A stretch of DNA of 64,000 bases, taken from NCBI GenBank assembly GCA_963668025.2, contig CAXXTH010000010.1:352001-416000 (forward strand). The letters run 5' to 3'. Below are positions 2,552-44,891 of the stretch, one piece after another. Made by a program: the position numbers and the translations under genes. Origin of the DNA: Candidatus Hydrogenedentota bacterium (GTDB lineage Bacteria > Hydrogenedentota > Hydrogenedentia > Hydrogenedentales > SLHB01). Under the pieces are notes generated by a model. That model did no database searches. It was not told where the DNA came from and saw nothing but the letters and a program-made list of their open reading frames with translations. Every line of letters begins with the position of its first letter. The stretch's first letter is position 1.

Positions 2552-2828
2552 TTTGCTGTTTACTCCTGCTCCACGGACTATTCTATGCAAGGCGGCATTT
2601 TTTTAATCGCTTCAAACATCATCATAGCATAGCAATGAGACAGTTCCGAGCTTGCGCAGAAACGGCAGCCTTCAGATCAAAAATGGAAAGAACGGTGAAA
2701 AATGAATAGAATACCTCGATTCTGGATAACACGGATAAAGGCATATGGATTATCTGAATCCCTAGTAATTTATATGAAGTCTGCTGTTCAAACACGCGGC
2801 GCATGCTTATAGAAAGAGGTGGCCATTT

Positions 2829-3887: not shown

Positions 3888-3966
3888 TGTATAGGATGAG
3901 TTGTTCACTTGAAGCAGGGCCTTTTCCTGCTGTATTTCCCATCCTTTAAGGAGGCGCGATTACCTG

Positions 3967-28763: not shown

Positions 28764-29170
28764 GGAACCCGAACCCCGAACTCACTGCGCCGCAGGCTCC
28801 GGTGGCGGAACTGGCTCGGAGAACACGTAGAACGCGGGCCGAAGGTTTGCGGAGCCATCTAGCCCTACGATGGCCATAGCCGGGAGCTGGGTAGAGACGA
28901 ATCGGTAGCCGCCGTTATCCTTGCTTTCCATCGCAACCGCAAGTGTTTCAATGGATTTTCCCGAACCTGCCGTGGACAGCATATCCGTCAGATCAAAGAC
29001 ATACCAACCGGAGTAATGATAGGGAAGTGTGGCCATGGGCCGTACAGCGGCGGTGGCGTCGACATTGTAACCTTCCGTGAGGTTCACGACATAGCTTTGG
29101 TCTTCAGACTTAGCAAAGGAGTCCCATGGCGTGTTCAGTGGTAACACTATGGGCGCCAGGGCTTACGCAT

Positions 29171-30328
29171 CTAAATTCCCAGTAAACGTAGGAGGTATTC
29201 GGGGTCGAGTGCAGCAGCGAAGCGCTTGCCCCTGAGGAAATCTTTGTTGGTCTTGTCTTTCTTGAGGAGGTTGAGTGTAATTCTCCTCAAGGAGGCGAGA
29301 TTCTGGGCGGCGTTTCTTGTTCGGGCGCGGTTGTCGTCTTCGCGAAAGATAATGTCTAGGCACCAGTGCAAATTGTTTTCCACGCCCCAGTGTCCACGCA
29401 CGGCGTGGGCGAATCGTCGTGCGTCGAGGGGCAGGCTGCTCAAGTAGTAGCGCCGCTCGATGGTGTTCTTCCCTTTTTCCTTGCGGATGGACTCGACCAT
29501 GCCGAAACTCTTGAGGCCCTTCCAAAGTCCTTTGTCCTCGAACCAGCCCAAGTCGGTGGATTGCCAGTATCGGCGGGTTTCGATGCGGCCATGCCCCTTG
29601 TCGATGGTCTGGTGGAAATCCATCCGTGTGGCGTCGGCTGTTGGCGCGCACTGGGTGGCGCAAGGGGGAACGGCGTCCTTGAAAAAGGCCTTCACTTCTT
29701 CTAGGGCGGTGGCGTGGTTGCCTTTGAGGGCCAGCACGTAGTCGGCCTGCCGTTGGATAATGTGGGAGGCGATATCCTTCTGGCAGCCCATGGCGTCCAG
29801 GGTGACGATGGCTCCCTTGAGCTTTAAGGCGTTGAGGAGTTTGGGGACGGCGGTGATTTCGTTGGATTTCTCGTCCACCTTGACCTGCCCCAGCGCCAGG
29901 CCGTGCTCGCAAGCCCATGCGCTGACGATGTAGGGGATGGCCTCCCCCTGATTCAAGGCGCGCCGCAGGGCTTTGCCGTCAATGGCGACGACCTCATCGC
30001 TTAGATTGGGGCAAATGCCCTGCACCCATTGGCCGAAGCATTCCAGAAAGGCATGGGGGTCGAGGGCGGAAAAGACCCGGTTGAAGGTGTCGTGCGAGGG
30101 GATGCCGCCGGGCAATTCCAGGAAGCCCTTCAGCCAATCCTCCCGGAGCCAGCCGAAGCGCTCCATATCCGAAAAGCTCTCTCCGCCCACGAGGGCTGAG
30201 CATAGCCCAATCACCAAGATGTCAATGAAGTTGTGCCTGCGGGTCCGGTCCATGCGGGGATCAGGCAGGCCCGCGAAACACTCGATAATAGGCTTGGGCT
30301 TGGGCAGGGATTTCTTTTCAGCGGTCAT
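29171..30328 (-). CDS. ISAs1-family transposase
   Basis: LPDPR, GIPSHDTF, AIDGKALR, KSNEITA, VTLDAMGCQ, LKGNH, HGRIETR, RGHWGVENNLHW. Confidence 0.95.
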   Translation of the reverse strand: MTAEKKSLPKPKPIIECFAGLPDPRMDRTRRHNFIDILVIGLCSALVGGESFSDMERFGWLREDWLKGFLELPGGIPSHDTFNRVFSALDPHAFLECFGQWVQGICPNLSDEVVAIDGKALRRALNQGEAIPYIVSAWACEHGLALGQVKVDEKSNEITAVPKLLNALKLKGAIVTLDAMGCQKDIASHIIQRQADYVLALKGNHATALEEVKAFFKDAVPPCATQCAPTADATRMDFHQTIDKGHGRIETRRYWQSTDLGWFEDKGLWKGLKSFGMVESIRKEKGKNTIERRYYLSSLPLDARRFAHAVRGHWGVENNLHWCLDIIFREDDNRARTRNAAQNLASLRRITLNLLKKDKTNKDFLRGKRFAAALDPEYLLRLLGI

Positions 30329-30372
30329 GGGGTGCTCCTTTCATTCATGCGCCGAAGCACTGTTGACTCTAG

Positions 30373-30390
30373 TATATAGAATTCTATATA
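30373..30390. promoter_or_regulatory. Perfect 18-bp palindrome between divergent ISAs1 genes
   Basis: TATATAGAATTCTATATA between TTGACT and TATATT boxes; same in copy 2 at 42679-42696. Confidence 0.7.
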
Positions 30391-30399
30391 TTAAAATCC

Positions 30400-31927
30400 G
30401 TAACACTTTAGCCGTCTGACGCAACCATAAGTAGCGTTTCGGTATAATATAGTTACAAGATGTTGTGGTTTTGGGCCAAGACGCCATGGCGACGGCAATA
30501 AGTGGCATTCCATTGGGACCGCTGCTCTCGGAGGAGCAAGCCCGAGCGATCTACGCATTGGGCGAAGATGCCGTGGTGTTTGCCCTGTTGGCGCAATCCA
30601 AGCTGCTGTCGGAGCAGCAGGCCGAGGCGGCGTTCACTTCCCACCAAACGCCCTCCACCCCTTCGGGCATGCAGCCAGTTTACGGGAAACCCCAGACGCC
30701 TGTGCGCGGCAAGAAAAAGCCGGGACGCAAGATGGGCCACCCCGGCAGCCGGCGCGTGCCGCCCGAACGTATCGACCGGCGTGAAACACACCGCACCAAG
30801 GTGTGTCCCGACTGCGGCGGGCCGCTGGACCGCCGCGCGGAGACCCGCACGCGCTACACCGAAGACATACCCGAAGGCATCCGTCCGGAAATCACCGAGC
30901 ATACCATTCACCGCGACTGGTGTCCGCGATGCAAGAAGAAAGTCGAGCCGGTTGTGGCGGCGGCCTTGCCGGGCGCGACCCTGGGCAACCGGGTGCTGGT
31001 CCTCAGCGCGTGGCTGCACTATGTGTTGGGCAACACGCTTTCGCAAATCGTGGAGGTCTTCGATTTCCACCTGCTTTTCCAGGTCACGCCGGGCGGGCTG
31101 CTGCACATGTGGCGCAGGCTGGCGGAGATTCTCCTGCCTTGGTACGAGGCCATTCACCAGGAAGCGCTGGACTCGGCGGTGCTCAACGCCGACGAGACCG
31201 GCTGGCGCGTGAATGGCAAGACCCGATGGCTGTGGTGTTTCGCCACCAAAGGGCTGAGCTTTTTCCTGATCGACCATTCGCGGGGGAGTCCGGCGCTCCA
31301 GCAGTTCTTCACGCGGGAATTCGCCGGAACGCTGGTGGCCGACTTCTGGGCCGCGTACAACGCCGTGGCGTGCGCCGCCCGGCAGAAGTGCCTCGTGCAT
31401 TTGTTGCGCGAACTCGAGCACGTGGAGAAATACAAATCGCCCAGCCCGGCCTGGCCCGCCTTCGCCAAAAAGCTGCGCCGCCTGATTGCCGACGCCATCC
31501 GGCTGTGGCGGCGGCGCGGCGAGCTCGAACCGGAGGCGTACGACTCGCGCCGCGCGCGCTTCGCCCGGCGCTTGCGGGACTTGTGCGATACGCCCTGGGA
31601 GGACGCCAACGCCAAGCGCCTCATAAAAAGGCTGCGCCGACACCAGGATGAACTCTTCACTTTTCTCGGCCAATCAGATGTTCCCTTCGACAACAACTTG
31701 GCGGAACGCTCCATCCGTCCTGCCGTTATCCTGCGCAAAAACAGTTACTGCAACCGCAGCGACCAAGGAGCCGCCATACAAGCGGTGCTCATGAGCGTCT
31801 TCTTTACTTTGAAAAAACGCGGGCAAAACCCCGTCTGCACCGTCTGCAACGCCCTGGTCCACTACCTCAACACCGGCCAATTGCCTCCCCTGCCACCGGA
31901 AAACACTTCAGTCGGCTAAAGTGTTAC
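30400..31927 (+). mobile_element. IS66-family single-ORF element (ISBst12-like), copy 1
   Basis: IR GTAACACTTTAGCCG; 8-bp TSD TAAAATCC at 30392-30399 and 31928-31935. Confidence 0.93.
30465..31919 (+). CDS. IS66-family transposase
   Basis: TPSTPS, GHPG, CPDCG/CPRC zinc finger, NADETGW, QKCLVHLLRE, DNNLAERSIR. Confidence 0.95.
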   Translation: MVLGQDAMATAISGIPLGPLLSEEQARAIYALGEDAVVFALLAQSKLLSEQQAEAAFTSHQTPSTPSGMQPVYGKPQTPVRGKKKPGRKMGHPGSRRVPPERIDRRETHRTKVCPDCGGPLDRRAETRTRYTEDIPEGIRPEITEHTIHRDWCPRCKKKVEPVVAAALPGATLGNRVLVLSAWLHYVLGNTLSQIVEVFDFHLLFQVTPGGLLHMWRRLAEILLPWYEAIHQEALDSAVLNADETGWRVNGKTRWLWCFATKGLSFFLIDHSRGSPALQQFFTREFAGTLVADFWAAYNAVACAARQKCLVHLLRELEHVEKYKSPSPAWPAFAKKLRRLIADAIRLWRRRGELEPEAYDSRRARFARRLRDLCDTPWEDANAKRLIKRLRRHQDELFTFLGQSDVPFDNNLAERSIRPAVILRKNSYCNRSDQGAAIQAVLMSVFFTLKKRGQNPVCTVCNALVHYLNTGQLPPLPPENTSVG

Positions 31928-31935
31928 TAAAATCC

Positions 31936-32235
31936 ATGAAGCACACCAAAAAGATGCAAGCGTTGCTGGAGCGCATGGCGCAGATTAAGCGGATGGAGCG
32001 CGGGAAGCTCTGTCAAATGGGCGGGCGTCCCCACTTTAACCACCAGAGCTGGGAGAACGAGAAGAACGTGGTTCGCTATGTGTCGGCGCGCGAAACCGAG
32101 TTCCTAAAAGAGGCCATCAATGGCTACCAGGCTTTCATGAAGCTGGCTGAACGCTACGTTGACGAAGTCGTCAAGCAAACCCGCCGTGAGCGCGCAAAGA
32201 CCTTCCCCCCAGCGAAAAATCCCAGGCCACGTTGA
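31936..32235 (+). CDS. Small DUF6788-like ORF carried inside the ISAs1 element
   Basis: 99 aa, lies within the ISAs1 IRs; aligns with OrfA of both ISKra4-like elements. Confidence 0.75.
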   Translation: MKHTKKMQALLERMAQIKRMERGKLCQMGGRPHFNHQSWENEKNVVRYVSARETEFLKEAINGYQAFMKLAERYVDEVVKQTRRERAKTFPPAKNPRPR

Positions 32236-33797
32236 CAGAAAAAATCATGCACAACAGGATAAATCGACTCTTGAGCACTATTAGATGCGTAAGCCCTGCT
32301 ATGGGCGCTGGTAATGTGTCATTACGTTCTAGAATGTTATATAGTACGAGCAGACACTGCTTCCCGCTGGATACTAGGCCATTGCGCAGTTGCTCTGGCA
32401 CCGACAAGACTCCGCAGCCATGAGAGACTGAAGAGGGAAGAAGGTAATTCGCACTGACGTAGAATCCCTCGACTGGGCATACGCCTCCTTTGACCAGGTT
32501 GCCAGAAATCCATCCCTGTCCGGCCTCCGGCACAGGATACACTTCTGGACACGAAGTGTTTTCAGAGAGTGAAGCCAGCGCCATTGCAAGCCCCGGTTCA
32601 CGAAGGGAATCGCATTCCAGCAGCTTGCATACCCGAGATTCCAACGCGGTAATCTGCTGCAAGGAGGAACTCAGCGGAACCACAAACGTGTTCTGTTCCG
32701 ACAAATGGTATGTATGAGATTGACTGGCTTGGGTAGCAGACGGGAAAAATATGTCTATGGATTGATTGTCTTGTGTAGGAGACGAAGAGAATTTGTCTGG
32801 GAGTTTCCCGAAATAATCGCGGGGGTTGCTGTCGGGCAATCCAGAAGTCAGAACCCTGCCGGCAACCTGCACCGATATATCTTGTGCAATAACCTCAAAG
32901 ACAGCGGGATTCTCCGCCCTTCTGTATACCCGATATTCGTCGCCGAGCGGTCTCCCCCATGCATCCGCCGGAACGCGTTCCAGATCCTGGATCTCTTCAA
33001 GTTCCCACATGCCCGTAGCGCCGAGGAGGAGATTCACATAACGGCTCCATTGACGCCCCATATAATCGTTGGTCCATGAGGCTACAGCGGTAATGAGCTG
33101 GTGGGCGTCGTCTGAAGAAGGAGGCATATCCGCGCGAAGCTCCACCTGGACCGGTTTGTTTTCTGGAACGATAATGGCCTCCTCTTTCTCACCGGCGAAC
33201 AGGGTGATTTCAGAATTGATGCTCAGCTTGGTCTCCGGATCGACGAAATTGAGGTAATACTGGCCTGGCCGGATGGGCCCGAAAACAGCCTTTCCTGATG
33301 CATCCAGCGGTGTATTTATCTCTCGGGGCATCTCTTCTCCGTCGAATGCGTGGCCCGACAGGCTGATCTCCTGGCCGGTCACGGCAGGGCCATCCGCGGA
33401 GCCGCGCCGCACTTCCACCTTCAAGGTGGCTAACGTGGCCTCTTGCGGTTTTTGTTGGGCAAGGAGTGCTTGGAGCGTCTGATTGGTCGCCTGTATCAGC
33501 CGGTATCCGAACACGGCGCATATGGCGACCACCGCCACGCCGACTACGACCACTCCCGTATGGATCCATTCGCGCATGATCTGCTCCCTCATCGCGTCCC
33601 ACCATAACTGCCGGGCCACGCGGTTTGGGTCGCCGAATCGCTCGACGACCCGTTTCCATACCGTTTTTTCATCCTCGATGCCCGTCCGCCGTTCCCGTTC
33701 CGCCGCCAAGGCGAGATGGTCGGCCAGTTCGTCGAGGATATCGTTGCGCAGGGTTGCGGGTTCGCGGGTTCGCCGTGGCAGCACTTCCTCCGCGTCT

Positions 33798-34136
33798 TCA
33801 CGCCATGACATGGGCTTGGACCCCGAGCACGCCGTTGATGGCCCCCACGAACTCCTGCCACTCCTCCCGCTTCTCCGCCAGCGCCTCACCGCCTTTGGCG
33901 GTGAGCCGGTAGTATTTCCTTCGCCGTCCCGACTCGAGTTCGACCCAATATGAATCGAGGAGCTTCGCCCGCTCCAACCGATGCAGGGCGGGATACAAGC
34001 TGCCCTCTTTCAGTTCAAAAATTCCCCGAGAACGTTCCAGCGTTTGCTGGGTGATCTCGTATCCATACGTCGGCCCCGTGCTGATCACTTGCAAGATCAA
34101 CATTTCAACGGTGCCGCTGAGCAACTTAGAGTCCAT
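33798..34136 (-). CDS. PadR family transcriptional regulator
   Basis: LLSGTVEMLIL, YGYEI, KEGSLYPALHRLE, RRKYYRLT. Confidence 0.95.
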   Translation of the reverse strand: MDSKLLSGTVEMLILQVISTGPTYGYEITQQTLERSRGIFELKEGSLYPALHRLERAKLLDSYWVELESGRRRKYYRLTAKGGEALAEKREEWQEFVGAINGVLGVQAHVMA

Positions 34137-34191
34137 CTTCCTTCTCCCGAGTGCGTGCCTAGGTGTTCTTTGGCATAGGTTATTTATGTAT

Positions 34192-34220
34192 AATGTAGCA
34201 CCACATCGAATTTTTGTCAA
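34192..34220 (-). promoter_or_regulatory. Putative sigma70 promoter of the padR operon
   Basis: TTGACA-17 nt-TACATT on the minus strand. Confidence 0.6.
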
Positions 34221-34333
34221 GGGGTTCTTTTACATGGGGCCTGCGTCAAAAAAGTGGGTTTTCGTTTCCCCCCCTTTTTTTGGCCCGATGTATGTAGTAA
34301 GATTACTACAATAAATAGAGAGGAGAACCAATC

Positions 34334-34714
34334 ATGGCCAATAAACGCACGCTGGAAGAAAAACGCTTGGACTTGCTCGAACAATTGGGCGAAATACGAA
34401 CCTTGAGAAAAGGATCCCTCAATGAACAATGGTTTCCCTCTATCAAGGACGGGAAAAAAACGCGAGAGTTACGCGGACCCTATTACTTATGGACAAGCAA
34501 GAAAAACAATAAGACCGTGAGCGAACGCATTTGCGGCGAGCAAGAATTGAACCGCGCGCGTCAGGATGAGGAAAACTATAAACGTTTCCGGGATGTATGC
34601 AGACAATTCGAGTCGGTGGCCCAAGAACTGGGCGAACTGGAACGGATGCAGAGCGCCGAACAAGACGCCCTCAAAAAAAAACGCAAGCCGCCATCGAAAA
34701 AGACGCCGAAGTAA
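34334..34714 (+). CDS. IS OrfA, DUF6788-like
   Basis: GAGGAG RBS; RGPYY motif; A9 run at 34673-34681 near its 3' end. Confidence 0.8.
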   Translation: MANKRTLEEKRLDLLEQLGEIRTLRKGSLNEQWFPSIKDGKKTRELRGPYYLWTSKKNNKTVSERICGEQELNRARQDEENYKRFRDVCRQFESVAQELGELERMQSAEQDALKKKRKPPSKKTPK

Positions 34715-36018
34715 CGCGGATTTTCAACGCGGCAAAACGCGCGGCGGGAACGGATCTCGAAGCATTGGAACAAGCCCTGCGCGGCGCGGCCCTCATGGGA
34801 GGGGCCAAGGCGCTCGATGCCTTTTTAAGAAAGGTGGGCGTGGGCCGGCGCGGGGAAAAAGCGCGTTGCTCATGCATGGCGGTAATGAAAAGCCGTGGCC
34901 TGAAGACAAAAACCATCGTCACTCTTTTGGGCAAGATCCGCTTTACGCGCACCGCCTACCGGTGCCCCCGGTGCGGCAAATGGCGGTATCCCGGCGACGA
35001 GGAGCTCGATGTCGCCAACACGCGCTATTCGCCGGGCGTGCGGCGTCTCGTGGCGGATTTCGCCAGCGACGCCCCATTCAAAAGGGTGTCGCAACAACTG
35101 AAAGCAGCCGCCGGACTCGTGATCAGCCGCAAGGACTGTGAGCGTATCGCGGAACAGACCGGCCAGCAAGCCGCCCACTGGTTCGCGCAAGAACGGGACC
35201 GTATCCGATTCCAGGAACCGCCGCCTCCCGATGCCGCCAAAACTATCGAGACCCTTTACATCGAGTTCGACGGCAGCGGCGTTCCCATGGTGCCCGAGGC
35301 GCTCGAAGGCCGCAAGGGAAAATATCAAAACGGCAAGCCCAAAACCCGCGAGGTGAAAATCGGATGCGTTTTTTCTCAAACCGCCTTCAACGAAAAAGGC
35401 CGCCCCATCCGGGATAGGGGCTCCGCCAGTTTCGTGGGCGCCATCGAGACGTCCGAACAGTTTCAATGGCGCATCTACGCCGAGGCCGTCCGCCGCGGAT
35501 TGTTCAGGGCCAAACGCGTCGTATGCCTCACCGATGGGGCCGAATGGATACGAAACATCGTACAAACCCATTTTCACGCCGCCATCCACGTAGTCGACTT
35601 GTATCACGCGCGCGAGCATCTCGGGAACCTGTGCAAATTGTTGTTTGGACGCGACGAAAAACGTTTGGCCTTGTACAAGGGCAAATGGTGGGACGATCTG
35701 GATGAGGGAAAGATCGAAACCATCGTGGAAGAAGCCGCCGTGCTGTTGCCAAACAATGGGCCGGATGCCAAAGAAGCCGTTACCGCCATCGGCTATTTTG
35801 AGACGAACAAAGAACGCATGCGCTACAACGATTTTTTTGCCAAGGGACTATTCGTTGGCTCGGGAGTCATTGAAGCGGCGTGCAGGACGGTCGTTGGCCA
35901 GCGTATGAAGCACTCCGGTATGGAATGGACCGTCCGTGGCGCAAATGCCATTACGGCGTTGCGATGCCTTATTCAATCCAATCGCTTCGAGGAGTATTGG
36001 GAACAAAGAACCGGATGA
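34597..36018 (+). CDS. ISKra4-like DDE transposase (OrfB, -1 frame relative to OrfA)
   Basis: YIEFDGSGVP, DGAEWI, DLYHAREHL, GSGVIEAACR, GMEW. Confidence 0.9.
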   Translation: MQTIRVGGPRTGRTGTDAERRTRRPQKKTQAAIEKDAEVTRIFNAAKRAAGTDLEALEQALRGAALMGGAKALDAFLRKVGVGRRGEKARCSCMAVMKSRGLKTKTIVTLLGKIRFTRTAYRCPRCGKWRYPGDEELDVANTRYSPGVRRLVADFASDAPFKRVSQQLKAAAGLVISRKDCERIAEQTGQQAAHWFAQERDRIRFQEPPPPDAAKTIETLYIEFDGSGVPMVPEALEGRKGKYQNGKPKTREVKIGCVFSQTAFNEKGRPIRDRGSASFVGAIETSEQFQWRIYAEAVRRGLFRAKRVVCLTDGAEWIRNIVQTHFHAAIHVVDLYHAREHLGNLCKLLFGRDEKRLALYKGKWWDDLDEGKIETIVEEAAVLLPNNGPDAKEAVTAIGYFETNKERMRYNDFFAKGLFVGSGVIEAACRTVVGQRMKHSGMEWTVRGANAITALRCLIQSNRFEEYWEQRTG

Positions 36019-36309
36019 AAACCCACTTTTTTGACGCAGGCCCCCTTGTGGGCACAAGGCAATCGCATAAAGAATAGCCACAAGAGTCACAAGAGACACA
36101 AAATGATCCTTGAGCGCATTTTGTGTCTCTTGGGCATCTTGCGGCCAGTTCTTGCTGTTTTTATACGATTGCCTTGCATGAGAACATCCTTGAGGCGTCA
36201 TGCCGCACCAAAGAGACTCCCTCAACAATGTCGCCACGGCCTGTGCGGAAGCGGGTTTCATGAACGAAGCCGCAAAATAGGCAACACTTTTTCGGAATGA
36301 AGCAAGAGC

Positions 36310-36459
36310 TTTTTTAGACATGATTTACATGATTAACGAGATTGGAGATGCACGCAATAGTCATAGCTCCTTGATGAAGCGCCCGAACACGTTTTCGATG
36401 GCAGCCAAATCACTGTCCAAATAATCTTGTTTCATGGATGTAAATCATGTCTAAAAAAA
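36310..36459. repeat. MITE-like element with 20-bp terminal inverted repeats
   Basis: TTTTTTAGACATGATTTACA...TGTAAATCATGTCTAAAAAA; diverged copy at 57489-57637. Confidence 0.75.
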
Positions 36460-36617
36460 GGTGCAGTGCTGTCATTACTGCTCCATTCGCCTTAGCTAGG
36501 CATAACCGCAACCCAAGTGGAATCGTTCTTGGGCGCGCGAATGAGCGTAAAACGCATAGCAGATTGGCCCACCACTTAATAACATCTGTTGTATAAAACA
36601 AACTAGTTTACATAGCT

Positions 36618-36762
36618 GTCATTTTCGCGAAATCGGGAATCCAGTGTAAATTCTCTGGATCCCCGTTTTCTCGAGGATGACGGATAGGCGGTTTTGCGTT
36701 ATTATTTTCAATGCGTACGCATGATATATACTTCCAGGAACGGTAATATCAGAACTGCACCC
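36618..36762. repeat. REP doublet plus ~100-bp repeat, copy 1
   Basis: 36662-36762 is similar to 37707-37810. Confidence 0.7.
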
Positions 36763-36891
36763 GAAGAAAAGGAATGGGAGGGCGAGTAAAGTGAAACAGA
36801 AAAGCAAAAGCCAGCTTGGGTAGTTGTTTTGTGCGAATTTCCAAAAAACTAATTCATGGATCTTGATTACGTATATTTTCTAATATATATA

Positions 36892-37389
36892 CTATTTCCA
36901 TAGCCATGAATTTTCACCTTCGCCTTCTTCACACACATCCCCCAGTCTTGGTTCATATATCCCTGCAGACTGTCCTTTTCCCATATCTACATAGAATAGT
37001 AAAATATTTTGATTATCTAGTACTACCTTACCGCCATAAATACTCCCAACATCGAAAATCGAACGAATTTCTTTTACTTTACCTTTGTGAGTTTCAAGGA
37101 GTTCGATAATGCGCATTTTCTCCTCTTGGGGGATCCCAGACACAAACCGGATAGAATCAACATCTCGATTCTTATCAAGACAACTTTCTACAAAATCTTT
37201 ATAGGCTGCATTACTTCCCCAAGGAATACGAAAAAAAACATAAACTACAGAAAAAACCACAGAAATAACCACAACACAAGTGATACAAATGCTTATATAT
37301 TTATATATGGTAAAATATTTTAACATAACAAAACTCTTTTCTGCCCTTTTGTTGAAATGCACGACACAGCATGTTCGCTTTTTCATCAT
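36892..37389 (-). CDS. Hypothetical AT-rich protein with N-terminal TM
   Basis: 165-aa ORF in AT-rich segment, one hydrophobic helix. Confidence 0.55.
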   Translation of the reverse strand: MMKKRTCCVVHFNKRAEKSFVMLKYFTIYKYISICITCVVVISVVFSVVYVFFRIPWGSNAAYKDFVESCLDKNRDVDSIRFVSGIPQEEKMRIIELLETHKGKVKEIRSIFDVGSIYGGKVVLDNQNILLFYVDMGKGQSAGIYEPRLGDVCEEGEGENSWLWK

Positions 37390-37706
37390 TACTTGTATGT
37401 TATTTTACTAGAGCAACTTATAAACCGTAATCATTATGGGTTGCCTGTACCCACAAATTCTCGCGCAGATCGATATATTTCTTTCTTTATTAGTCAATAC
37501 GCCAATTTATTGAGTCGTTAGTTGACTCTGAGGTCACAGAACTATCCACCAATCTGCTAGAGCTGTATCGGACGAGAACTACACCGATCTATCAATTCGT
37601 CAATCCACTGTTCAAAGTATTTTTCACAACACTGCTCACAGTTCCCCCCTTCTTTCCCGCACTTCTACTATATTTGTTTGATGCCATATCCTACCATTCG
37701 TAATGA

Positions 37707-37810
37707 CCCGCTTTCGCGAGGATGACATTTAGGCGGTTTCTCGTTATTTGTTCAGAACCTGCGTACGCATTATACATTCTACCAGGAGCGGTAATAGCAG
37801 AACTACACCC
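37707..37810. repeat. ~100-bp repeat, copy 2
   Basis: CCG.TTT..CGAGGATGAC...TAGGCGGTTT...GCGTACGCAT...CCAGGA.CGGTAATA.CAGAACT.CACCC shared with 36662-36762. Confidence 0.7.
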
Positions 37811-38087
37811 TAGATTTAATAGCTCTTACTATAGGTATTCTTCCCCCTCTAGCAGAAAAATATATACCGATTGGCAGATAAACAACATTAATACGTAAAT
37901 ATAACATTATGTATAGTTCAAGTAGTTCAAAAGGACCTTGTGAAAAATATTCTATTGTATCTACTCTCATCATAAAAGAGCTGAGAGGATTAGGAACAAA
38001 AATGAAAAATGTTATTACTATAGCTAAGGCAAAAGAGTTAAGTAGTAAATAGAAGAAGAACAAAAAACGCCTATTCTTATTTCGCAT
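37803..38087 (-). CDS. Small hydrophobic hypothetical membrane protein
   Basis: 94-aa ORF with two hydrophobic stretches; starts 6 nt from the IS66 end. Confidence 0.45.
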   Translation of the reverse strand: MRNKNRRFLFFFYLLLNSFALAIVITFFIFVPNPLSSFMMRVDTIEYFSQGPFELLELYIMLYLRINVVYLPIGIYFSARGGRIPIVRAIKSRV

Positions 38088-38093
38088 AAATTT

Positions 38094-39621
38094 GTAACAC
38101 TTTAGCCGACTGAAGTGTTTTCCGGTGGCAGGGGAGGCAATTGGCCGGTGTTGAGGTAGTGGACCAGGGCGTTGCAGACGGTGCAGACGGGGTTTTGCCC
38201 GCGTTTTTTCAAAGTAAAGAAGACGCTCATGAGCACCGCTTGTATGGCGGCTCCTTGGTCGCTGCGGTTGCAGTAACTGTTTTTGCGCAGGATAACGGCA
38301 GGACGGATGGAGCGTTCCGCCAAGTTGTTGTCGAAGGGAACATCTGATTGGCCGAGAAAAGTGAAGAGTTCATCCTGGTGTCGGCGCAGCCTTTTTATGA
38401 GGCGCTTGGCGTTGGCGTCCTCCCAGGGCGTATCGCACAAGTCCCGCAAGCGCCGGGCGAAGCGCGCGCGGCGCGAGTCGTACGCCTCCGGTTCGAGCTC
38501 GCCGCGCCGCCGCCACAGCCGGATGGCGTCGGCAATCAGGCGGCGCAGCTTTTTGGCGAAGGCGGGCCAGGCCGGGCTGGGCGATTTGTATTTCTCCACG
38601 TGCTCGAGTTCGCGCAACAAATGCACGAGGCACTTCTGCCGGGCGGCGCACGCCACGGCGTTGTACGCGGCCCAGAAGTCGGCCACCAGCGTTCCGGCGA
38701 ATTCCCGCGTGAAGAACTGCTGGAGCGCCGGACTCCCCCGCGAATGGTCGATCAGGAAAAAGCTCAGCCCTTTGGTGGCGAAACACCACAGCCATCGGGT
38801 CTTGCCATTCACGCGCCAGCCGGTCTCGTCGGCGTTGAGCACCGCCGAGTCCAGCGCTTCCTGGTGAATGGCCTCGTACCAAGGCAGGAGAATCTCCGCC
38901 AGCCTGCGCCACATGTGCAGCAGCCCGCCCGGCGTGACCTGGAAAAGCAGGTGGAAATCGAAGACCTCCACGATTTGCGAAAGCGTGTTGCCCAACACAT
39001 AGTGCAGCCACGCGCTGAGGACCAGCACCCGGTTGCCCAGGGTCGCGCCCGGCAAGGCCGCCGCCACAACCGGCTCGACTTTCTTCTTGCATCGCGGACA
39101 CCAGTCGCGGTGAATGGTATGCTCGGTGATTTCCGGACGGATGCCTTCGGGTATGTCTTCGGTGTAGCGCGTGCGGGTCTCCGCGCGGCGGTCCAGCGGC
39201 CCGCCGCAGTCGGGACACACCTTGGTGCGGTGTGTTTCACGCCGGTCGATACGTTCGGGCGGCACGCGCCGGCTGCCGGGGTGGCCCATCTTGCGTCCCG
39301 GCTTTTTCTTGCCGCGCACAGGCGTCTGGGGTTTCCCGTAAACTGGCTGCATGCCCGAAGGGGTGGAGGGCGTTTGGTGGGAAGTGAACGCCGCCTCGGC
39401 CTGCTGCTCCGACAGCAGCTTGGATTGCGCCAACAGGGCAAACACCACGGCATCTTCGCCCAATGCGTAGATCGCTCGGGCTTGCTCCTCCGAGAGCAGC
39501 GGTCCCAATGGAATGCCACTTATTGCCGTCGCCATGGCGTCTTGGCCCAAAACCACAACATCTTGTAACTATATTATACCGAAACGCTACTTATGGTTGC
39601 GCCAGACGGCTAAAGTGTTAC
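38094..39621 (-). mobile_element. IS66-family element, copy 2 (no TSD)
   Basis: Same IRs and 1528-bp length as copy 1; flanks ATAAATTT / GGATTTTC differ. Confidence 0.93.
38102..39556 (-). CDS. IS66-family transposase
   Basis: Protein identical to 30465-31919. Confidence 0.95.
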   Translation of the reverse strand: MVLGQDAMATAISGIPLGPLLSEEQARAIYALGEDAVVFALLAQSKLLSEQQAEAAFTSHQTPSTPSGMQPVYGKPQTPVRGKKKPGRKMGHPGSRRVPPERIDRRETHRTKVCPDCGGPLDRRAETRTRYTEDIPEGIRPEITEHTIHRDWCPRCKKKVEPVVAAALPGATLGNRVLVLSAWLHYVLGNTLSQIVEVFDFHLLFQVTPGGLLHMWRRLAEILLPWYEAIHQEALDSAVLNADETGWRVNGKTRWLWCFATKGLSFFLIDHSRGSPALQQFFTREFAGTLVADFWAAYNAVACAARQKCLVHLLRELEHVEKYKSPSPAWPAFAKKLRRLIADAIRLWRRRGELEPEAYDSRRARFARRLRDLCDTPWEDANAKRLIKRLRRHQDELFTFLGQSDVPFDNNLAERSIRPAVILRKNSYCNRSDQGAAIQAVLMSVFFTLKKRGQNPVCTVCNALVHYLNTGQLPPLPPENTSVG

Positions 39622-39648
39622 GGATTTTCTTTATTTCGCAAATGCCTC
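39622..39648 (-). mobile_element. 27-bp orphan left end of the IS1182/IS4-like element
   Basis: Reverse complement of GAGGCATTTGCGAAATAAAGAAAATCC (44892-44918). Confidence 0.85.
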
Positions 39649-40232
39649 CTGGTGTCAGGGCTTACGCATCTAAATTCCCAGTAAACGTAGAAGGTATTCG
39701 GGGTCGAGTGCAGCAGCGAAGCGCTTGCCCCTGAGGAAATCTTTGTTGGTCTTGTCTTTCTTGAGGAGGTTGAGTGTAATTCTCCTCAAGGAGGCGAGAT
39801 TCTGGGCGGCGTTTCTTGTTCGGGCGCGGTTGTCGTCTTCGCGAAAGATAATGTCTAGGCACCAGTGCAAATTGTTTTCCACGCCCCAGTGTCCACGCAC
39901 GGCGTGGGCGAATCGTCGTGCGTCGAGGGGCAGGCTGCTCAAGTAGTAGCGCCGCTCGATGGTGTTCTTCCCTTTTTCCTTGCGGATGGACTCGACCATG
40001 CCGAAACTCTTGAGGCCCTTCCAAAGTCCTTTGTCCTCGAACCAGCCCAAGTCGGTGGATTGCCAGTATCGGCGGGTTTCGATGCGGCCATGCCCCTTGT
40101 CGATGGTCTGGTGGAAATCCATCCGTGTGGCGTCGGCTGTTGGCGCGCACTGGGTGGCGCAAGGGGGAACGGCGTCCTTGAAAAAGGCCTTCACTTCTTC
40201 TAGGGCGGTGGGTGTGCGTCCCAATTGTGCTT

Positions 40233-41546
40233 TCATGCGGCATCTTTCCTAGCTCTGTCGGCCCAGAAGTCTTCGAAGTCTCTGTTCAAGAAGGCGCATC
40301 GTAGCGTAATGATCTTGTTTGCACCGTTGACCGTCCATCTCATTCCGGACTGCTTGAGCCGTTTTCCTACAACATTTTTGCAGCCGGCCTCTATGACGCC
40401 GGAGCCGACGAACAGTTTTTGTTCCCGGAATTCGGCATAGCGCATCATGTGGGCGCGGCTGCCCAGATACAGAAAATGTTCCCAGGCCGCCTTGCCGTCA
40501 TCGTCGTGGCTGGGCATGTGTGGCCGCAGTAGCTCCAGGGCCTGCGCGGCCTCTCCCTGCCGCACGAGTTCGCTGAGGCTTTGGCGCATCCGCATCCCCA
40601 GCTCAGTGGTCTTCCCAAAGAGCAGCGCGCACAACAGCGCCAGGTGTTCCAGTGCGTGATACAGGTCGAGGATGTGAACGGCCCCGGGGAAGTAGTCGGC
40701 GGCGATGTTCGCTATCCATTGCGCGCCGTCGGAAAGGACCACCACCTTTTGCGCGCGTTCCAGTCCACGGCGCTGGGCTTCGGCGAAGATGCGGCCTGCA
40801 AAGGCTTCGGCGTTTTCCACGGCGCCGGAAAAGGTGGTGCTGCCGGGGTCGCGCACCGGCTCCCCCTTCTCGTCCGTGCTGGTTTGTGTGAAGACGCATC
40901 CGATTTTGGCCTCACGGGTTTTGGCGGATCCGTCTTGCGCCTTTCCCTTGCGCCCGTCCGTTTCGGACTTGACGACGGGAACCCCCGTGCCGTCCATTTC
41001 GATGTACAGGACGGGAATCTCATCGCCGGTGCTGGGCTGCGCGGGGTTTGACGGATGCCCGCGCCGCTGCTTTTCCCACGCGGCCACGTCCGCTCCCGTC
41101 TGCTCGCTGGACCGCTCGCAGTCCTTGGCGCTCACGCTGATGCCCGCCAGTTCTTTTAGATCCCCGGCGGCGTCCGCGAAGCTTTCCCGCGCGCCAAGGC
41201 GCGCCGTCATTCGCCTGACGCCGGGCGAACGCGAAGTGCCCGCGACATCCAGCAGTTCGTCCGCTGGATAGGCGGTGGCCCCGCATGGGCAGCGGTACAT
41301 CGCGCGCTCCTGCGTGACGTTCCCCAGAATGGTCGTGATGCGCCTGGCCCGCATGCCCGCGCGGCGCATGGGATGGCCGCACAGCGGGCACGCATGCTCC
41401 TGGCCCTGGACAATGGCGTTTGCCTTGTCGAACAGGACGGCCAGCGTCTTTCCCGCGCCTTCCAGGGCGGCGGTGCGGATGAGTTTCTCCGTTGCTTCAA
41501 AGTCCACGCCGCGGTCCCGGCGGACTAGCGCCAGCGCCCGCGACAT
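40233..41546 (-). CDS. ISKra4-like DDE transposase (OrfB)
   Basis: YIEMDGTGVP, SDGAQWI, DLYHALEHL, GSGVIEAGCK, SGMRW. Confidence 0.9.
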   Translation of the reverse strand: MSRALALVRRDRGVDFEATEKLIRTAALEGAGKTLAVLFDKANAIVQGQEHACPLCGHPMRRAGMRARRITTILGNVTQERAMYRCPCGATAYPADELLDVAGTSRSPGVRRMTARLGARESFADAAGDLKELAGISVSAKDCERSSEQTGADVAAWEKQRRGHPSNPAQPSTGDEIPVLYIEMDGTGVPVVKSETDGRKGKAQDGSAKTREAKIGCVFTQTSTDEKGEPVRDPGSTTFSGAVENAEAFAGRIFAEAQRRGLERAQKVVVLSDGAQWIANIAADYFPGAVHILDLYHALEHLALLCALLFGKTTELGMRMRQSLSELVRQGEAAQALELLRPHMPSHDDDGKAAWEHFLYLGSRAHMMRYAEFREQKLFVGSGVIEAGCKNVVGKRLKQSGMRWTVNGANKIITLRCAFLNRDFEDFWADRARKDAA

Positions 41547-41569
41547 TTCCGCGGACCTTTCCAGTTCGA

Positions 41570-41920
41570 CTAGAGCCCTTTTTTTTGCCGCTCGTGGGCG
41601 GCCTCCTTGTCGCGCTCAAGCTCTCCGAGCTGTTGTGTCAGCTCGCAAAAGCGTTCGGCGAGTTCGTGAATACGCTTGCTGTTGTCCGTCTGTTCACGGG
41701 CGCGCCGCACGTCCTCGGGACTTCGCAGCCGCTGCCGCCGGGGCTTTCCCTGCTCGTACCACTGCAGGGAGTAATAAGGTCCCCGTTCCACGGCCTCCGG
41801 CATGTCCTTGCGTGTGCCCTTGACCATTTGCTCCGACACGCCGCCCGGGTGGGCGCTTCGAATGGCGCGCATCTGCCCCAAAATACATTCCCGTTGCGCT
41901 TCAATCGTCTCAATGTTCAT
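41570..41920 (-). CDS. IS OrfA, DUF6788-like
   Basis: GGAGG RBS; RGPYY motif; A8 run at 41579-41586. Confidence 0.8.
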   Translation of the reverse strand: MNIETIEAQRECILGQMRAIRSAHPGGVSEQMVKGTRKDMPEAVERGPYYSLQWYEQGKPRRQRLRSPEDVRRAREQTDNSKRIHELAERFCELTQQLGELERDKEAAHERQKKGL

Positions 41921-42705
41921 GGCGGCCTCCATTTGTGTCTATACAGACACAAAATTATACCGCAAAAAACATCTGGACGCAACGAAACACAATCATGGCG
42001 CACACCCTAGGGCGGTGGCGTGGTTGCCTTTGAGGGCCAGCACGTAGTCGGCCTGCCGTTGGATAATGTGGGAGGCGATATCCTTCTGGCAGCCCATGGC
42101 GTCCAGGGTGACGATGGCTCCCTTGAGCTTTAAGGCGTTGAGGAGTTTGGGGACGGCGGTGATTTCGTTGGATTTCTCGTCCACCTTGACCTGCCCCAGC
42201 GCCAGGCCGTGCTCGCAAGCCCATGCGCTGACGATGTAGGGGATGGCCTCCCCCTGATTCAAGGCGCGCCGCAGGGCTTTGCCGTCAATGGCGGCGACCT
42301 CATCGCTTAGATTGGGGCAAATGCCCTGCACCCATTGGCCGAAGCATTCCAGAAAGGCATGGGGGTCGAGGGCGGAAAAGACCCGGTTGAAGGTGTCGTG
42401 CGAGGGGATGCCGCCGGGCAGCTCCAGGAAGCCCTTCAGCCAATCCTCCCGGAGCCGGCCGAAGCGCTCCATATCCGAAAAGCTCTCTCCGCCCACGAGG
42501 GCTGAGCATAGCCCAATCACCAAGATGTCAATGAAGTTGTGCCTGCGGGTCCGGTCCATGCGGGGATCAGGCAGGCCCGCGAAACACTCGATAATAGGCT
42601 TGGGCTTGGGCAGGGATTTCTTTTCAGCGGTCATGGGGTGCTCCTTTCATTCATGCGCCGAAGCACTGTTGACTCTAGTATATAGAATTCTATATATTAA
42701 AATCC

Positions 42706-43005
42706 ATGAAGCACACCAAAAAGATGCAAGCATTGCTGGAGCGCATGGCGCAGATTGAGCGGATGGAGCGCGGAAAGCTCTGTCAAATGGGCGGGCGTCC
42801 CCACTTTAACCACCAGAGCTGGGAGAACGAGAAGAACGTGGTTCGCTATGTGCCGGCGCGCGAAACCGAGTTCCTAAAAGAGGTCATCAATGGCTACCAG
42901 GCTTTCATGAAGCTGGCTGAACGCTACGTGGACGAAGTCATCAAGCAAACCCGCCGTGAGCGCGCAAAGACCTTCCCCCAAGCGAAAAATCCCAGGCCAC
43001 GTTGA
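42706..43005 (+). CDS. Small DUF6788-like ORF in ISAs1 copy 2
   Basis: Near-identical to 31936-32235; intact upstream promoter and palindrome. Confidence 0.75.
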   Translation: MKHTKKMQALLERMAQIERMERGKLCQMGGRPHFNHQSWENEKNVVRYVPARETEFLKEVINGYQAFMKLAERYVDEVIKQTRRERAKTFPQAKNPRPR

Positions 43006-43101
43006 CAGAAAAAATCATGCACAACAGGATAAATCGACTCTTGAGCACTATTAGATGCGTAAGCCCTGACCCCTGTGGGCCTGCGTCAAAAAAGTGGGTT
43101 T

Positions 43102-44523
43102 TCATCCGGTTCTTTGTTCCCAATACTCCTCGAAGCGATTGGATTGAATAAGGCATCGCAACGCCGTAATGGCATTTGCGCCACGGACGGTCCATTCCAT
43201 ACCGGAGTGCTTCATACGCTGGCCAACGACCGTCCTGCACGCCGCTTCAATGACTCCCGAGCCAACGAATAGTCCCTTGGCAAAAAAATCGTTGTAGCGC
43301 ATGCGTTCTTTGTTCGTCTCAAAATAGCCGATGGCGGTAACGGCTTCTTTGGCATCCGGCCCATTGTTTGGCAACAGCACGGCGGCTTCTTCCACGATGG
43401 TTTCGATCTTTCCCTCATCCAGATCGTCCCACCATTTGCCCTTGTACAAGGCCAAACGTTTTTCGTCGCGTCCAAACAACAATTTGCACAGGTTCCCGAG
43501 ATGCTCGCGCGCGTGATACAAGTCGACTACGTGGATGGCGGCGTGAAAATGGGTTTGTACGATGTTTCGTATCCATTCGGCCCCATCGGTGAGGCATACG
43601 ACGCGTTTGGCCCTGAACAATCCGCGGCGGACGGCCTCGGCGTAGATGCGCCATTGAAACTGTTCGGACGTCTCGATGGCGCCCACGAAACTGGCGGAGC
43701 CCCTATCCCGGATGGGGCGGCCTTTTTCGTTGAAGGCGGTTTGAGAAAAAACGCATCCGATTTTCACCTCGCGGGTTTTGGGCTTGCCGTTTTGATATTT
43801 TCCCTTGCGGCCTTCGAGCGCCTCGGGCACCATGGGAACGCCGCTGCCGTCGAACTCGATGTAAAGGGTCTCGATAGTTTTGGCGGCATCGGGAGGCGGC
43901 GGTTCCTGGAATCGGATACGGTCCCGTTCTTGCGCGAACCAGTGGGCGGCTTGCTGGCCGGTCTGTTCCGCGATACGCTCACAGTCCTTGCGGCTGATCA
44001 CGAGTCCGGCGGCTGCTTTCAGTTGTTGCGACACCCTTTTGAATGGGGCGTCGCTGGCGAAATCCGCCACGAGACGCCGCACGCCCGGCGAATAGCGCGT
44101 GTTGGCGACATCGAGCTCCTCGTCGCCGGGATACCGCCATTTGCCGCACCGGGGGCACCGGTAGGCGGTGCGCGTAAAGCGGATCTTGCCCAAAAGAGTG
44201 ACGATGGTTTTTGTCTTCAGGCCACGGCTTTTCATTACCGCCATGCATGAGCAACGCGCTTTTTCCCCGCGCCGGCCCACGCCCACCTTTCTTAAAAAGG
44301 CATCGAGCGCCTTGGCCCCTCCCATGAGGGCCGCGCCGCGCAGGGCTTGTTCCAATGCTTCGAGATCCGTTCCCGCCGCGCGTTTTGCCGCGTTGAAAAT
44401 CCGCGTTACTTCGGCGTCTTTTTCGATGGCGGCTTGCGTTTTTTTTTGAGGGCGTCTTGTTCGGCGCTCTGCATCCGTTCCAGTTCGCCCAGTTCTTGGG
44501 CCACCGACTCGAATTGTCTGCAT
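43102..44523 (-). CDS. ISKra4-like transposase OrfB
   Basis: Identical to 34597-36018. Confidence 0.9.
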   Translation of the reverse strand: MQTIRVGGPRTGRTGTDAERRTRRPQKKTQAAIEKDAEVTRIFNAAKRAAGTDLEALEQALRGAALMGGAKALDAFLRKVGVGRRGEKARCSCMAVMKSRGLKTKTIVTLLGKIRFTRTAYRCPRCGKWRYPGDEELDVANTRYSPGVRRLVADFASDAPFKRVSQQLKAAAGLVISRKDCERIAEQTGQQAAHWFAQERDRIRFQEPPPPDAAKTIETLYIEFDGSGVPMVPEALEGRKGKYQNGKPKTREVKIGCVFSQTAFNEKGRPIRDRGSASFVGAIETSEQFQWRIYAEAVRRGLFRAKRVVCLTDGAEWIRNIVQTHFHAAIHVVDLYHAREHLGNLCKLLFGRDEKRLALYKGKWWDDLDEGKIETIVEEAAVLLPNNGPDAKEAVTAIGYFETNKERMRYNDFFAKGLFVGSGVIEAACRTVVGQRMKHSGMEWTVRGANAITALRCLIQSNRFEEYWEQRTG

Positions 44524-44786
44524 ACATCCCGGAAACGTTTATAGTTTTCCTCATCCTGACGCGCGCGGTTCAATTCTTGCTCGCCGCAAATGCGTTCGCT
44601 CACGGTCTTATTGTTTTTCTTGCTTGTCCATAAGTAATAGGGTCCGCGTAACTCTCGCGTTTTTTTCCCGTCCTTGATAGAGGGAAACCATTGTTCATTG
44701 AGGGATCCTTTTCTCAAGGTTCGTATTTCGCCCAATTGTTCGAGCAAGTCCAAGCGTTTTTCTTCCAGCGTGCGTTTATTGGCCAT
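44406..44786 (-). CDS. IS OrfA, DUF6788-like
   Basis: Identical to 34334-34714. Confidence 0.8.
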   Translation of the reverse strand: MANKRTLEEKRLDLLEQLGEIRTLRKGSLNEQWFPSIKDGKKTRELRGPYYLWTSKKNNKTVSERICGEQELNRARQDEENYKRFRDVCRQFESVAQELGELERMQSAEQDALKKKRKPPSKKTPK

Positions 44787-44891
44787 GATTGGTTCTCCTC
44801 TCTATTTATTGTAGTAATCTTACTACATACATCGGGCCAAAAAAAGGGGGGGGAAACGAAAACCCACTTTTTTGACGCAGGCCCGACCCCT

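Follow-up and report, generated by a model that had tools for sequence, protein, structure and literature searches.

A small gene related to DUF6788 and its upstream palindrome in unrelated insertion sequences: a putative autoregulatory module that is shared among transposase families

The 64,000-nt stretch of Candidatus Hydrogenedentota DNA described here and referred to as the window (assembly GCA_963668025.2, contig CAXXTH010000010.1, positions 352,001 to 416,000 of the forward strand) contains in its 29-45 kb segment a series of nested insertion sequences (ISs) that are evident when the window is compared with itself by BLAST. Three IS types in this nest, one of the ISAs1 family and two of the ISKra4 family (types 1 and 2), each carry within the element boundaries a small open reading frame (ORF) related to the Pfam family DUF6788 (PF20586), and each type has a palindrome of its own near the start of that gene. 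An earlier note on this DNA had proposed that gene and palindrome form an autoregulatory or targeting module exchanged between unrelated transposases; we favour a role of the first kind, in which the small protein would probably act as a dimeric autorepressor.

The DUF6788-bearing elements of the window

The ISAs1-family element is present twice. Copy 1 (29157..32299) is 1,611 bp long when the IS66-family element that interrupts it is discounted, has terminal inverted repeats (IRs) CAGGGCTTACGCATCTAA and is flanked by the 9-bp duplication TATGGGCGC; its 385 aa transposase is encoded on the - strand (29171..30328; NF033564, 399.6 bits; domains DDE_Tnp_1_assoc and DDE_Tnp_1) and its small ORF, 99 aa from the ATG, on the + strand (31936..32235). 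In copy 2 (39656..43069) the transposase gene is split by the type 2 ISKra4 element, and the small ORF (42706..43005, +; 99 aa, pI 10.2) is divergent from it. Assignment to the ISAs1 family follows from the ISAs1-type DDE transposase, the 18-bp terminal IRs and the 9-bp duplications. Members of this family generate duplications of 8-10 bp and normally have a single ORF (ISfinder), and the element described here departs from that layout by virtue of the second, divergent 99 aa gene within its IRs. The view that this gene is a separate, divergent component of the element was correct, as the IRs and duplications bear out together with the 18 uninterrupted and 4 interrupted copies (plus 2 fragments) found in the whole genome.

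The type 1 ISKra4 element is also present twice. Copy 1 (34237..36043, +) is 1,807 bp long with 27-bp IRs and encodes OrfA (126 aa; 34334..34714, +) and OrfB, the transposase, in a 473 aa frame (34597..36018, +; NF033572, 297.1 bits); copy 2 is inverted (43077..44884, -), with OrfB at 43102..44523 and OrfA at 44406..44786. The type 2 element (40210..42007, -; about 1,798 bp) is flanked by the 9-bp duplication TAGGGCGGT and encodes OrfA (120 aa; 41570..41932, -) and the OrfB transposase (40233..41546, -; NF033572, 297.5 bits), a second ATG being located 12 nt downstream of the first in OrfA with GGAGG ahead of it. The genome contains 10 full copies, 1 interrupted copy and 1 fragment of type 1, and 11 copies of type 2, 10 of which are identical. 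The ISAs1 element and ISKra4 types 1 and 2 are active elements, and in all three the small ORF lies inside the element boundaries. The NCBIfam matches are well above their cut-offs for ISKra4 (297 bits for both types, cut-off 205), for ISAs1 (400 bits, cut-off 70) and for the interrupting IS66-family element (275 bits, cut-off 180).

Both ISKra4 types have a p-MULT 4 transposase, two ORFs in a -1 frameshift arrangement, and IRs with 8-9-bp duplications, and we refer to them as ISMich2-like on the strength of the transposase model, this layout and the IRs and duplications rather than of placement in a tree. OrfB is in the -1 frame of OrfA in both, and a slippery run at the end of OrfA, A9 in type 1 (34673..34681, +) and A8(G) in type 2 (41579..41586, -), is followed by a -1 frame that is open into OrfB, so that the proposal of a -1 fusion of OrfA to the transposase holds for both types. 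Nine of the 11 genomic type 1 copies that were examined have A9, whereas one each, both outside the window, has A10 (G000:C10:892495-894302) and A11 (C23:356445-358254); the A10 copy reads through to give a 524 aa in-frame OrfA-OrfB fusion. A naturally fused relative, P0190, is 559 aa long and comprises DUF6788 and UPF0236. The ISKra4 transposase model falls almost whole within OrfB (model positions 8-421 of 422). A two-ORF layout with a -1 frameshift is described as conserved in the ISMich2 group in the available text of Guerillot et al. (2014; PMC3942029).

Relationship of the small proteins to DUF6788

The OrfAs of types 1 and 2 are 31 % identical (BLASTP E-value 3e-15) and both pass the Pfam DUF6788 cut-off of 27.2 bits, with scores of 50.7 and 33.0 bits respectively. 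The ISAs1 small ORF of the window, taken alone, scores 13.7 bits (E-value 0.071), which is under the cut-off, and has no significant BLASTP match to either OrfA. It does have 388 relatives at an E-value of 0.001 or lower, and 35 of the 41 relatives aligned in set A1 match PF20586 at E-values of 0.01 or lower. Comparison of profiles by hhalign relates A1 to A4, a set of 20 canonical DUF6788 proteins from genomes of the phylum (95.8 %, E-value 8.3e-9 over 78 columns), and A2, the OrfA family, to A4 (98.5 %, E-value 2.2e-15), the direct match of A1 to A2 being weaker (73.8 %, E-value 2.9e-5). AlphaFold models (predicted local distance difference test, pLDDT, 91.2 and 89.7) have the same order of elements, namely a short helix, three strands and a helix of 39-48 residues. 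On these sequence profiles and models we accept the ISAs1-type small proteins as remote relatives of DUF6788, homologous at the superfamily level; the profile-level homology that the earlier note had looked for is therefore there, and its statement that the three element types share a homologous 99-126 aa ORF stands at that level, although for the ISAs1 ORF it is not borne out by BLASTP or by the Pfam score of the single sequence.

With 7,326 clusters at 50 % identity (E-value 0.001 or lower) the DUF6788 family is large; about 95 loci were examined for the present analysis. The clusters matched in the protein atlas are all hypothetical, and in one of them 19 % of the proteins carry PF20586. 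A CxxxxCxC...H zinc-knuckle motif is common in the sheet region of canonical DUF6788 proteins; it is absent from the ISKra4 OrfAs and partial in the ISAs1 type (C26, H33 and H36). All four DUF6788 proteins tested are basic (pI 8.6-11.2). A homodimer is predicted with an ipSAE of 0.82 in three runs, at least 90 % of contacts being common to the runs and partner pLDDT being at least 86, whereas the best of three controls reached 0.00; the predicted interface is symmetric and formed by helices 11-22 and 50-90. Of 30 proteins solved as same-chain pairs 20 attain this mark, compared with 1 of 23 single-chain proteins; as the prediction used our own alignment, the comparison is only approximate.

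The palindromes and their conservation

Five palindromes are exact in the window, compared with none in 100 shuffles of it. Both ISAs1 copies contain TATATAGAATTCTATATA (30373..30390 in copy 1 and 42679..42696 in copy 2). Type 1 has TGTAGTAAGATTACTACA in copy 1 (34293..34310), of the form TGTAGTAA-NN-TTACTACA that recurs in copy 2 (44810..44827); the copy 1 site is 57 nt from the left end of the element and 23 nt before the OrfA ATG, and a Shine-Dalgarno sequence lies between it and that ATG. In type 2 the palindrome TTTGTGTCT-N4-AGACACAAA (41932..41953) is again 57 nt from the left end, directly after a TATAAT and abutting the first ATG. The claim that each small ORF is directly preceded by a palindrome of its own is thus right as to the five exact sites, although at 30373 the IS66-family insertion separates palindrome and ORF. 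Each element contains its half-sites at a single place, which is 57 nt (ISKra4) or about 1,217 of 1,611 nt (ISAs1) from the end, and the IRs contain none. Among the 21 genomic ISAs1 copies that extend over the gene, the 99 aa ORF is intact in all and the palindrome exact in 20.

Relatives of the ISAs1 small ORF are encoded at 41 genome loci, of which 24 have an ATG that can be placed exactly; ATATAG-N2-5-CTATAT is found within 45 nt of it in all 24, compared with none of 862 control windows. For type 1 OrfA, 23 of 27 related loci (4 from genomes and 23 from metagenomes; L083, L085, L104 and L105 were left out) were analysed, and TGTAGTA-N2-6-TACTACA is present upstream in 22 of them but in none of 807 control windows; the sole exception, L103, has a different perfect palindrome of 26 bp. 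Conservation in this group is 0.88 in the palindrome arms and 0.62 in the flanks. When the 80 nt upstream of a diverse set of 25 DUF6788 loci, from the phylum survey and the window genome, was scored, at least eight paired arm positions were found at 13 loci, compared with 20 of 438 random windows and 13 of 500 shuffles. The palindromes upstream of homologues are thus both enriched, as the reading of the earlier note required, and lineage-specific: the sequence differs with the protein lineage, being GTACGGAAGTATATATACTTCCGTAC in an unrelated 15-copy element (see below), ACAAGTATA.ATACTTGT with IS4_1 elements and CTGATAT...ATATCAG in another group. Many of these palindromes have a centre of 0-2 nt, which suits a dyad in DNA rather than an RNA hairpin.

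Promoter geometry

Upstream of the small ORF in ISAs1 copy 2 is a promoter-like sequence, TTGACT-18-TATATT (42669..42698, +; 10 of 12 matches), whose second hexamer stops 7 nt short of the ATG, too close for a Shine-Dalgarno sequence or another start codon to fit between them. The small gene is apparently leaderless, to judge from this sequence. The earlier note had placed the palindrome between the two boxes and 7 nt before the ATG; boxes and leaderless geometry are as it described them, but the palindrome, besides spanning the spacer, overlaps the -10 box. The intergenic stretch between the divergent genes is 71 nt long. A promoter-like site is found at all 24 ISAs1-type loci (at 20 with at least 9 of 12 matches), in 22 of them the last base of the -10 box is at -8 or -7, and the palindrome covers the spacer and -10 box, giving the ATG-anchored consensus tTGaC ... 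ATATAG-N4-CTATAT.cT-7 nt-ATG. The geometry TTGACn-17/18-TAnnnT-7-ATG also occurs in the unrelated 15-copy element and at L051. No terminator was detected by scanning at the three element regions. Of six sequencing runs listed, one is of RNA; it is available as contigs, which do not resolve 5' ends, and contains 0.06 of the words sampled.

Association with other transposase families

An adjoining, divergent ISAs1 transposase gene is present at 28 of the 41 ISAs1-type small-gene loci. At two others, L009 from a Planctomycetota metagenome-assembled genome (MAG) and L018 from a Lentisphaerae MAG, the divergent gene instead encodes an IS4-family transposase (NF033590, 349 and 328 bits respectively), that of L009 having Tn5-type DNA-binding and dimerisation domains. 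Both have the TATATAG-type palindrome and the spacing of about 70 nt seen in the ISAs1 elements, and terminal IRs of 20 and 32 nt enclose both genes. In the small-protein tree L009 and L018 pair (93/85) and are nested, with moderate support (84/78), among ISAs1-linked proteins. Within the ISAs1 family, the small ORF is present at four loci with transposases at least 57 % identical to that of the window element and absent from nine at which the transposase is 38-48 % identical to it (eight from six other genomes, and L118 of the window genome), which lends indirect backing to a single ORF as the normal layout of the family.

The window genome contains 48 DUF6788 matches. Besides the three elements of the window, their hosts are a third ISKra4 type, a second type of ISAs1 element, the 15-copy element (1,987 bp; its 478 aa OrfB bears only a weak resemblance to IS1380 and ISAs1) and an element in 3 copies whose DDE protein is weakly IS4-like, and at least seven distinct pairs of DUF6788 gene and palindrome are represented. 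Across the phylum 46 of 135 genomes have DUF6788, compared with none of 14 control genomes. Elements verified by IRs or repeat units are one of the IS4_1 type, about 1.9 kb long and with its DUF6788 gene divergent, an IS5_3-type element of 1,336 bp in which the gene is co-directional, and two unclassified DDE elements, types E and F, also with a co-directional gene, type F being 1,952 bp long with IRs CAGCGATTCCGCAG and an 8-bp duplication. The module of gene and palindrome therefore travels with at least ISKra4 (Mutator-like), ISAs1, IS4 and IS5 (DDE_Tnp_1 type) transposases, and its portability extends to more families than the earlier note had claimed, including two IS4 subgroups, IS5 and unclassified DDE elements.

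Several other apparent associations were rejected. The IS630 transposase at L057 is a separate neighbour, the IRs of an IS5-type element (L111, 3526..4855) enclosing the DUF6788 gene only, and the IS21 transposase at L069 is likewise a neighbour. The IS1182 link (L075/L112) reflects an element inserted into a DUF6788 gene: at L112 (G091:C112, about 2764..4260) an IS1182-family element with 24-nt IRs lies within the gene and leaves a truncated match with an internal stop. For IS1634 (L050) and a divergent ISKra4 transposase (L051) we record adjacency only, as IRs were not found or the contig is too short. We note that L051 (G030:C480, 49..1819), on an IS-sized contig, has its ISKra4-family transposase gene divergent from a zinc-type DUF6788 gene and not frameshift-fused to it, and that TTGACA-17-TAGCAT-7-ATG and a 28-bp palindrome abut the ATG.

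Other features of the nest

The IS66-family element that interrupts ISAs1 copy 1 (30400..31927, +) is 1,528 bp long, encodes a single 484 aa transposase and no DUF6788 protein, and is flanked by the duplication TAAAATCC. Its insertion point falls precisely in the interval from the -10 box to the small-ORF ATG, so that in this copy the gene is uncoupled from its promoter and palindrome. Another IS66 copy abuts the identical ISAs1 position (element base 1244) at G000:C10:821448-823346, which may represent either a duplicated junction or a preferred target. Type 1 ISKra4 copies are located 8 bp beyond an ISAs1 end at three genome sites (window 43069..43077, G000:C10:48511/48520 and C19:21186/21195), reflecting perhaps that IS ends are preferred as targets or that a composite was duplicated. 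Type 1 copy 1 (34237..36043) has no target duplication, and its right flank, CCTTGTGGG, matches the left flank of the copy at C10:543896 (G000:C10:542090-543896), which suggests recombination between the two.

Between ISAs1 copy 1 and type 1 copy 1 a gene for a PadR-family regulator (33798..34220, -) overlaps a 572 aa ORF (32171..33889, -) whose 3' end extends into ISAs1 copy 1 at the right end of that element; the IS has thus probably clipped that gene. The segment at 36100..38090, between IS copies, contains short ORFs with a high content of Ile, Phe, Tyr and Lys (such as 36892..37389 and 37803..38087) and looks foreign in composition; a diverged 105-bp direct repeat (36662..36762 and 37707..37810) is 81 % identical. 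To the right of the nest, 45125..46507 encodes a 460 aa transposase with DDE_Tnp_1 and DUF772 domains that best matches IS1182, albeit under its cut-off, with no adjoining DUF6788 gene.

Proposed function of the module

We consider it reasonably probable that DUF6788 is a portable dimeric autorepressor, or copy-number controller, that acts on a lineage-specific palindromic operator. The position of the palindrome points to control of transcription, as it lies over the promoter in ISAs1-type and type E elements and directly after TATAAT in type 2; in type 1 it is located between the IR and the Shine-Dalgarno sequence. We infer that the protein would bind DNA, repress and act in trans, a symmetric homodimer occupying the palindrome over the promoter of its own gene and shutting down both its own synthesis and that of the transposase. 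In the ISKra4, IS5 and unclassified co-directional elements the transposase would be on the same transcript, such that occupancy of the operator would silence both products, and the ISKra4 transposase would in addition be made only after a rare -1 shift at the A-run. In the ISAs1 and IS4 elements the palindrome would act within the control region of about 70 nt that the divergent genes share, the small gene having no 5' leader. The same operator being present in every copy of one IS type, repression would act in trans and scale with copy number, and a burst of transposition in a naive host might be followed by shut-off, as with the C proteins of restriction-modification (R-M) systems. Different IS types in one cell, having different palindromes, could be controlled independently, and gene and operator would make up a compact cassette that is swapped among transposase families.

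Several observations weigh against this interpretation. Scans with Pfam and NCBIfam detected no helix-turn-helix family, and the predicted fold contains no helix-turn-helix; no solved structure stands above background in a Foldseek search of the PDB (best E-values 0.22 and 0.24), and VIA-align over 48,161 chains gave a best Z of 5.7 with matches that are all long-helix proteins. Structure prediction, which had been suggested as a way to find a DNA-binding fold, thus yielded a confident shared topology without a helix-turn-helix or a matching solved fold, so that DNA binding is argued from context alone. Sigma-70-like sites were not detected by the promoter scan in either ISKra4 type, nor in the window ISAs1 copy on the strand of the transposase gene; by eye, type 2 has TTGCGT-17-TATAAT, whose first hexamer fails the 4-of-6 rule of the scan, and the type 1 control region has no convincing promoter site. 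Among the ISAs1-type loci with upstream DNA at least five (L010, L012, L016, L025 and L041) have no adjoining transposase, and the gene thus occurs also alone or as a remnant. At 12 of the 25 diverse loci fewer than eight arm positions are paired, although some start codons may be misplaced. Finally, the loci are related by descent, and the counts given above therefore overstate the number of independent events; the telling points are the conservation of the arms as against the variable flanks, and the change of sequence between lineages.

A different role at the same site is conceivable, with DUF6788 serving not as a regulator of transcription but as a DNA-binding or tethering add-on that docks the transposase on an internal site, for transpososome assembly, cis-preference or target choice. 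The ISKra4 elements lend themselves to this, as the domain is joined to the transposase after the -1 shift, in the 524 aa fusion of the A10 copy and in P0190, and the palindrome has an identical position, 57 nt from the left end, in both types. Each element has, however, a single site, with no counterpart in the IRs or close to the opposite end, the ISAs1 and IS4 elements have the site mid-element and a separate protein, and OrfB of the ISKra4 elements contains a complete transposase model. Recognition of the ends is unlikely given the unique internal site, the completeness of that model and the predicted IR-binding domain N2, which the available text of Guerillot et al. (2014; PMC3942029) places, for every p-MULT family, immediately upstream of the catalytic domain. 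A part in target choice is unlikely as well, because the flanks of 18 ISAs1, 10 type 1 and 11 type 2 copies, which have 8-9-bp duplications, reveal no common target motif; with the half-sites occurring nowhere else in the elements, the targeting function that the earlier note had offered as one option is not upheld. Tethering by the OrfAB fusion of ISKra4 is possible, but as a general account of DUF6788 we think docking unlikely.

The palindrome could alternatively be the footprint of two overlapping, mirror-image divergent promoters, with DUF6788 acting in some other way, perhaps on the transposase itself, to which its long helices might bind. At 8 of the 24 ISAs1-type loci there is indeed a second promoter on the other strand, TGGACA-18-TATACT, with the -35 box starting at the A of the small-ORF ATG, and the predicted fold, in which helices pair in antiparallel fashion and the sheet is small, has prefoldin-like proteins among its weak matches. 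Nevertheless, the other 16 loci, the window copies among them, keep the palindrome without a mirrored promoter; the co-directional ISKra4, IS5 and type E and F elements have long palindromes and no divergent gene, with arms that reach well past any hexamer (as in GTACGGAAGTATATATACTTCCGTAC); and the arms vary with protein lineage beyond what promoter symmetry alone requires. We regard this explanation as quite improbable. The region is a nest of insertions, and coincidental associations do occur elsewhere, as with the IS630 neighbour and the IS1182 element inserted into a DUF6788 gene, so that one might suppose the small ORFs to be passengers, hitchhikers or chance neighbours in an IS-dense region that play no part in transposition. 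This is largely refuted, and in our estimation very improbable indeed, because every verified element, and each of the 21 genomic ISAs1 copies that extend over the gene, has it within the IRs or repeat unit, and because it is in frameshift register with the transposase in ISKra4 and has an adjoining divergent ISAs1 transposase gene at 28 of 41 ISAs1-type loci.

Comparison with known systems and significance

IS-encoded autoregulators are of a known kind. In IS1 (InsA) and in IS2 and the IS3 family (OrfA) a small upstream ORF encodes the N-terminus of the frameshift-fused transposase and down-regulates the element; such repressors bind the terminal IRs that contain the promoter, and each is known from one IS family. 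The DUF6788 module differs in that its site is internal and absent from the IRs, and in being common to several IS families. In Tn3 and gamma-delta the divergent tnpA and tnpR genes flank res, an intergenic control region that is bound by the small protein, TnpR, a serine recombinase acting at res; the divergent layout with a shared region is alike, but DUF6788 has no recombinase domain and the elements have no multi-site res.

The nearest functional analogy that we can suggest is with the C proteins of R-M systems, in which palindromic sites are paired with leaderless genes (Sorokin et al., 2009; PMC2632904). As far as the available text of that paper goes, these are likewise small regulators of selfish elements with a palindromic site just upstream, often a leaderless mRNA and a fixed distance from site to ATG, their sites are lineage-specific and the cassette pairs with different partner genes; in sequence geometry the ISAs1-type loci, too, have a short and fixed distance from palindrome to ATG. 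The C proteins described there are helix-turn-helix (Xre-type) proteins with two adjacent operators, for activation and then repression (PMC2632904), whereas DUF6788, which accompanies transposases, has a single palindrome and a predicted order of one helix, three strands and one long helix. The ISKra4 elements resemble the ISMich2 group of ISKra4 (p-MULT 4) in having a Mutator-like transposase, two ORFs with a -1 frameshift to full length, IRs and short duplications, but the OrfA domain, its Pfam family, the palindrome and its occurrence in other families are not described in the available text of that account, supplementary tables aside (PMC3942029).

Literature searches for DUF6788 or PF20586 found nothing, those for ISMich2 nothing beyond Guerillot et al. 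(2014; PMC3942029), and those for two-ORF ISAs1 forms and for leaderless, operator-controlled IS genes nothing relevant. As far as these searches went, the protein family, its private operators and the exchange among transposase families are undescribed. A more ambitious version of our proposal, in which the module is a self-contained, recombination-portable copy-number governor inserted time and again into unrelated transposons (ISKra4, ISAs1, IS4, IS5 and others), the protein a new beta-sheet or zinc-knuckle dimeric DNA binder, and the rapid diversification of private, orthogonal pairs of protein and operator what lets many IS families coexist within a single genome, is possible but in our view rather doubtful.

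If DUF6788 is an autorepressor of the kind proposed, a function would be provided for thousands of hypothetical genes, and a mechanism of transposon self-control would be common to several IS families rather than private to one. The OrfA of ISMich2-type ISKra4 elements would also be explained, since the frameshift is known but the first domain is not described in the available text on that group (PMC3942029), and the pairs of protein and palindrome would constitute a natural set of orthogonal repressors and operators. Classification of ISs by transposase alone misses accessory modules of this exchangeable type.

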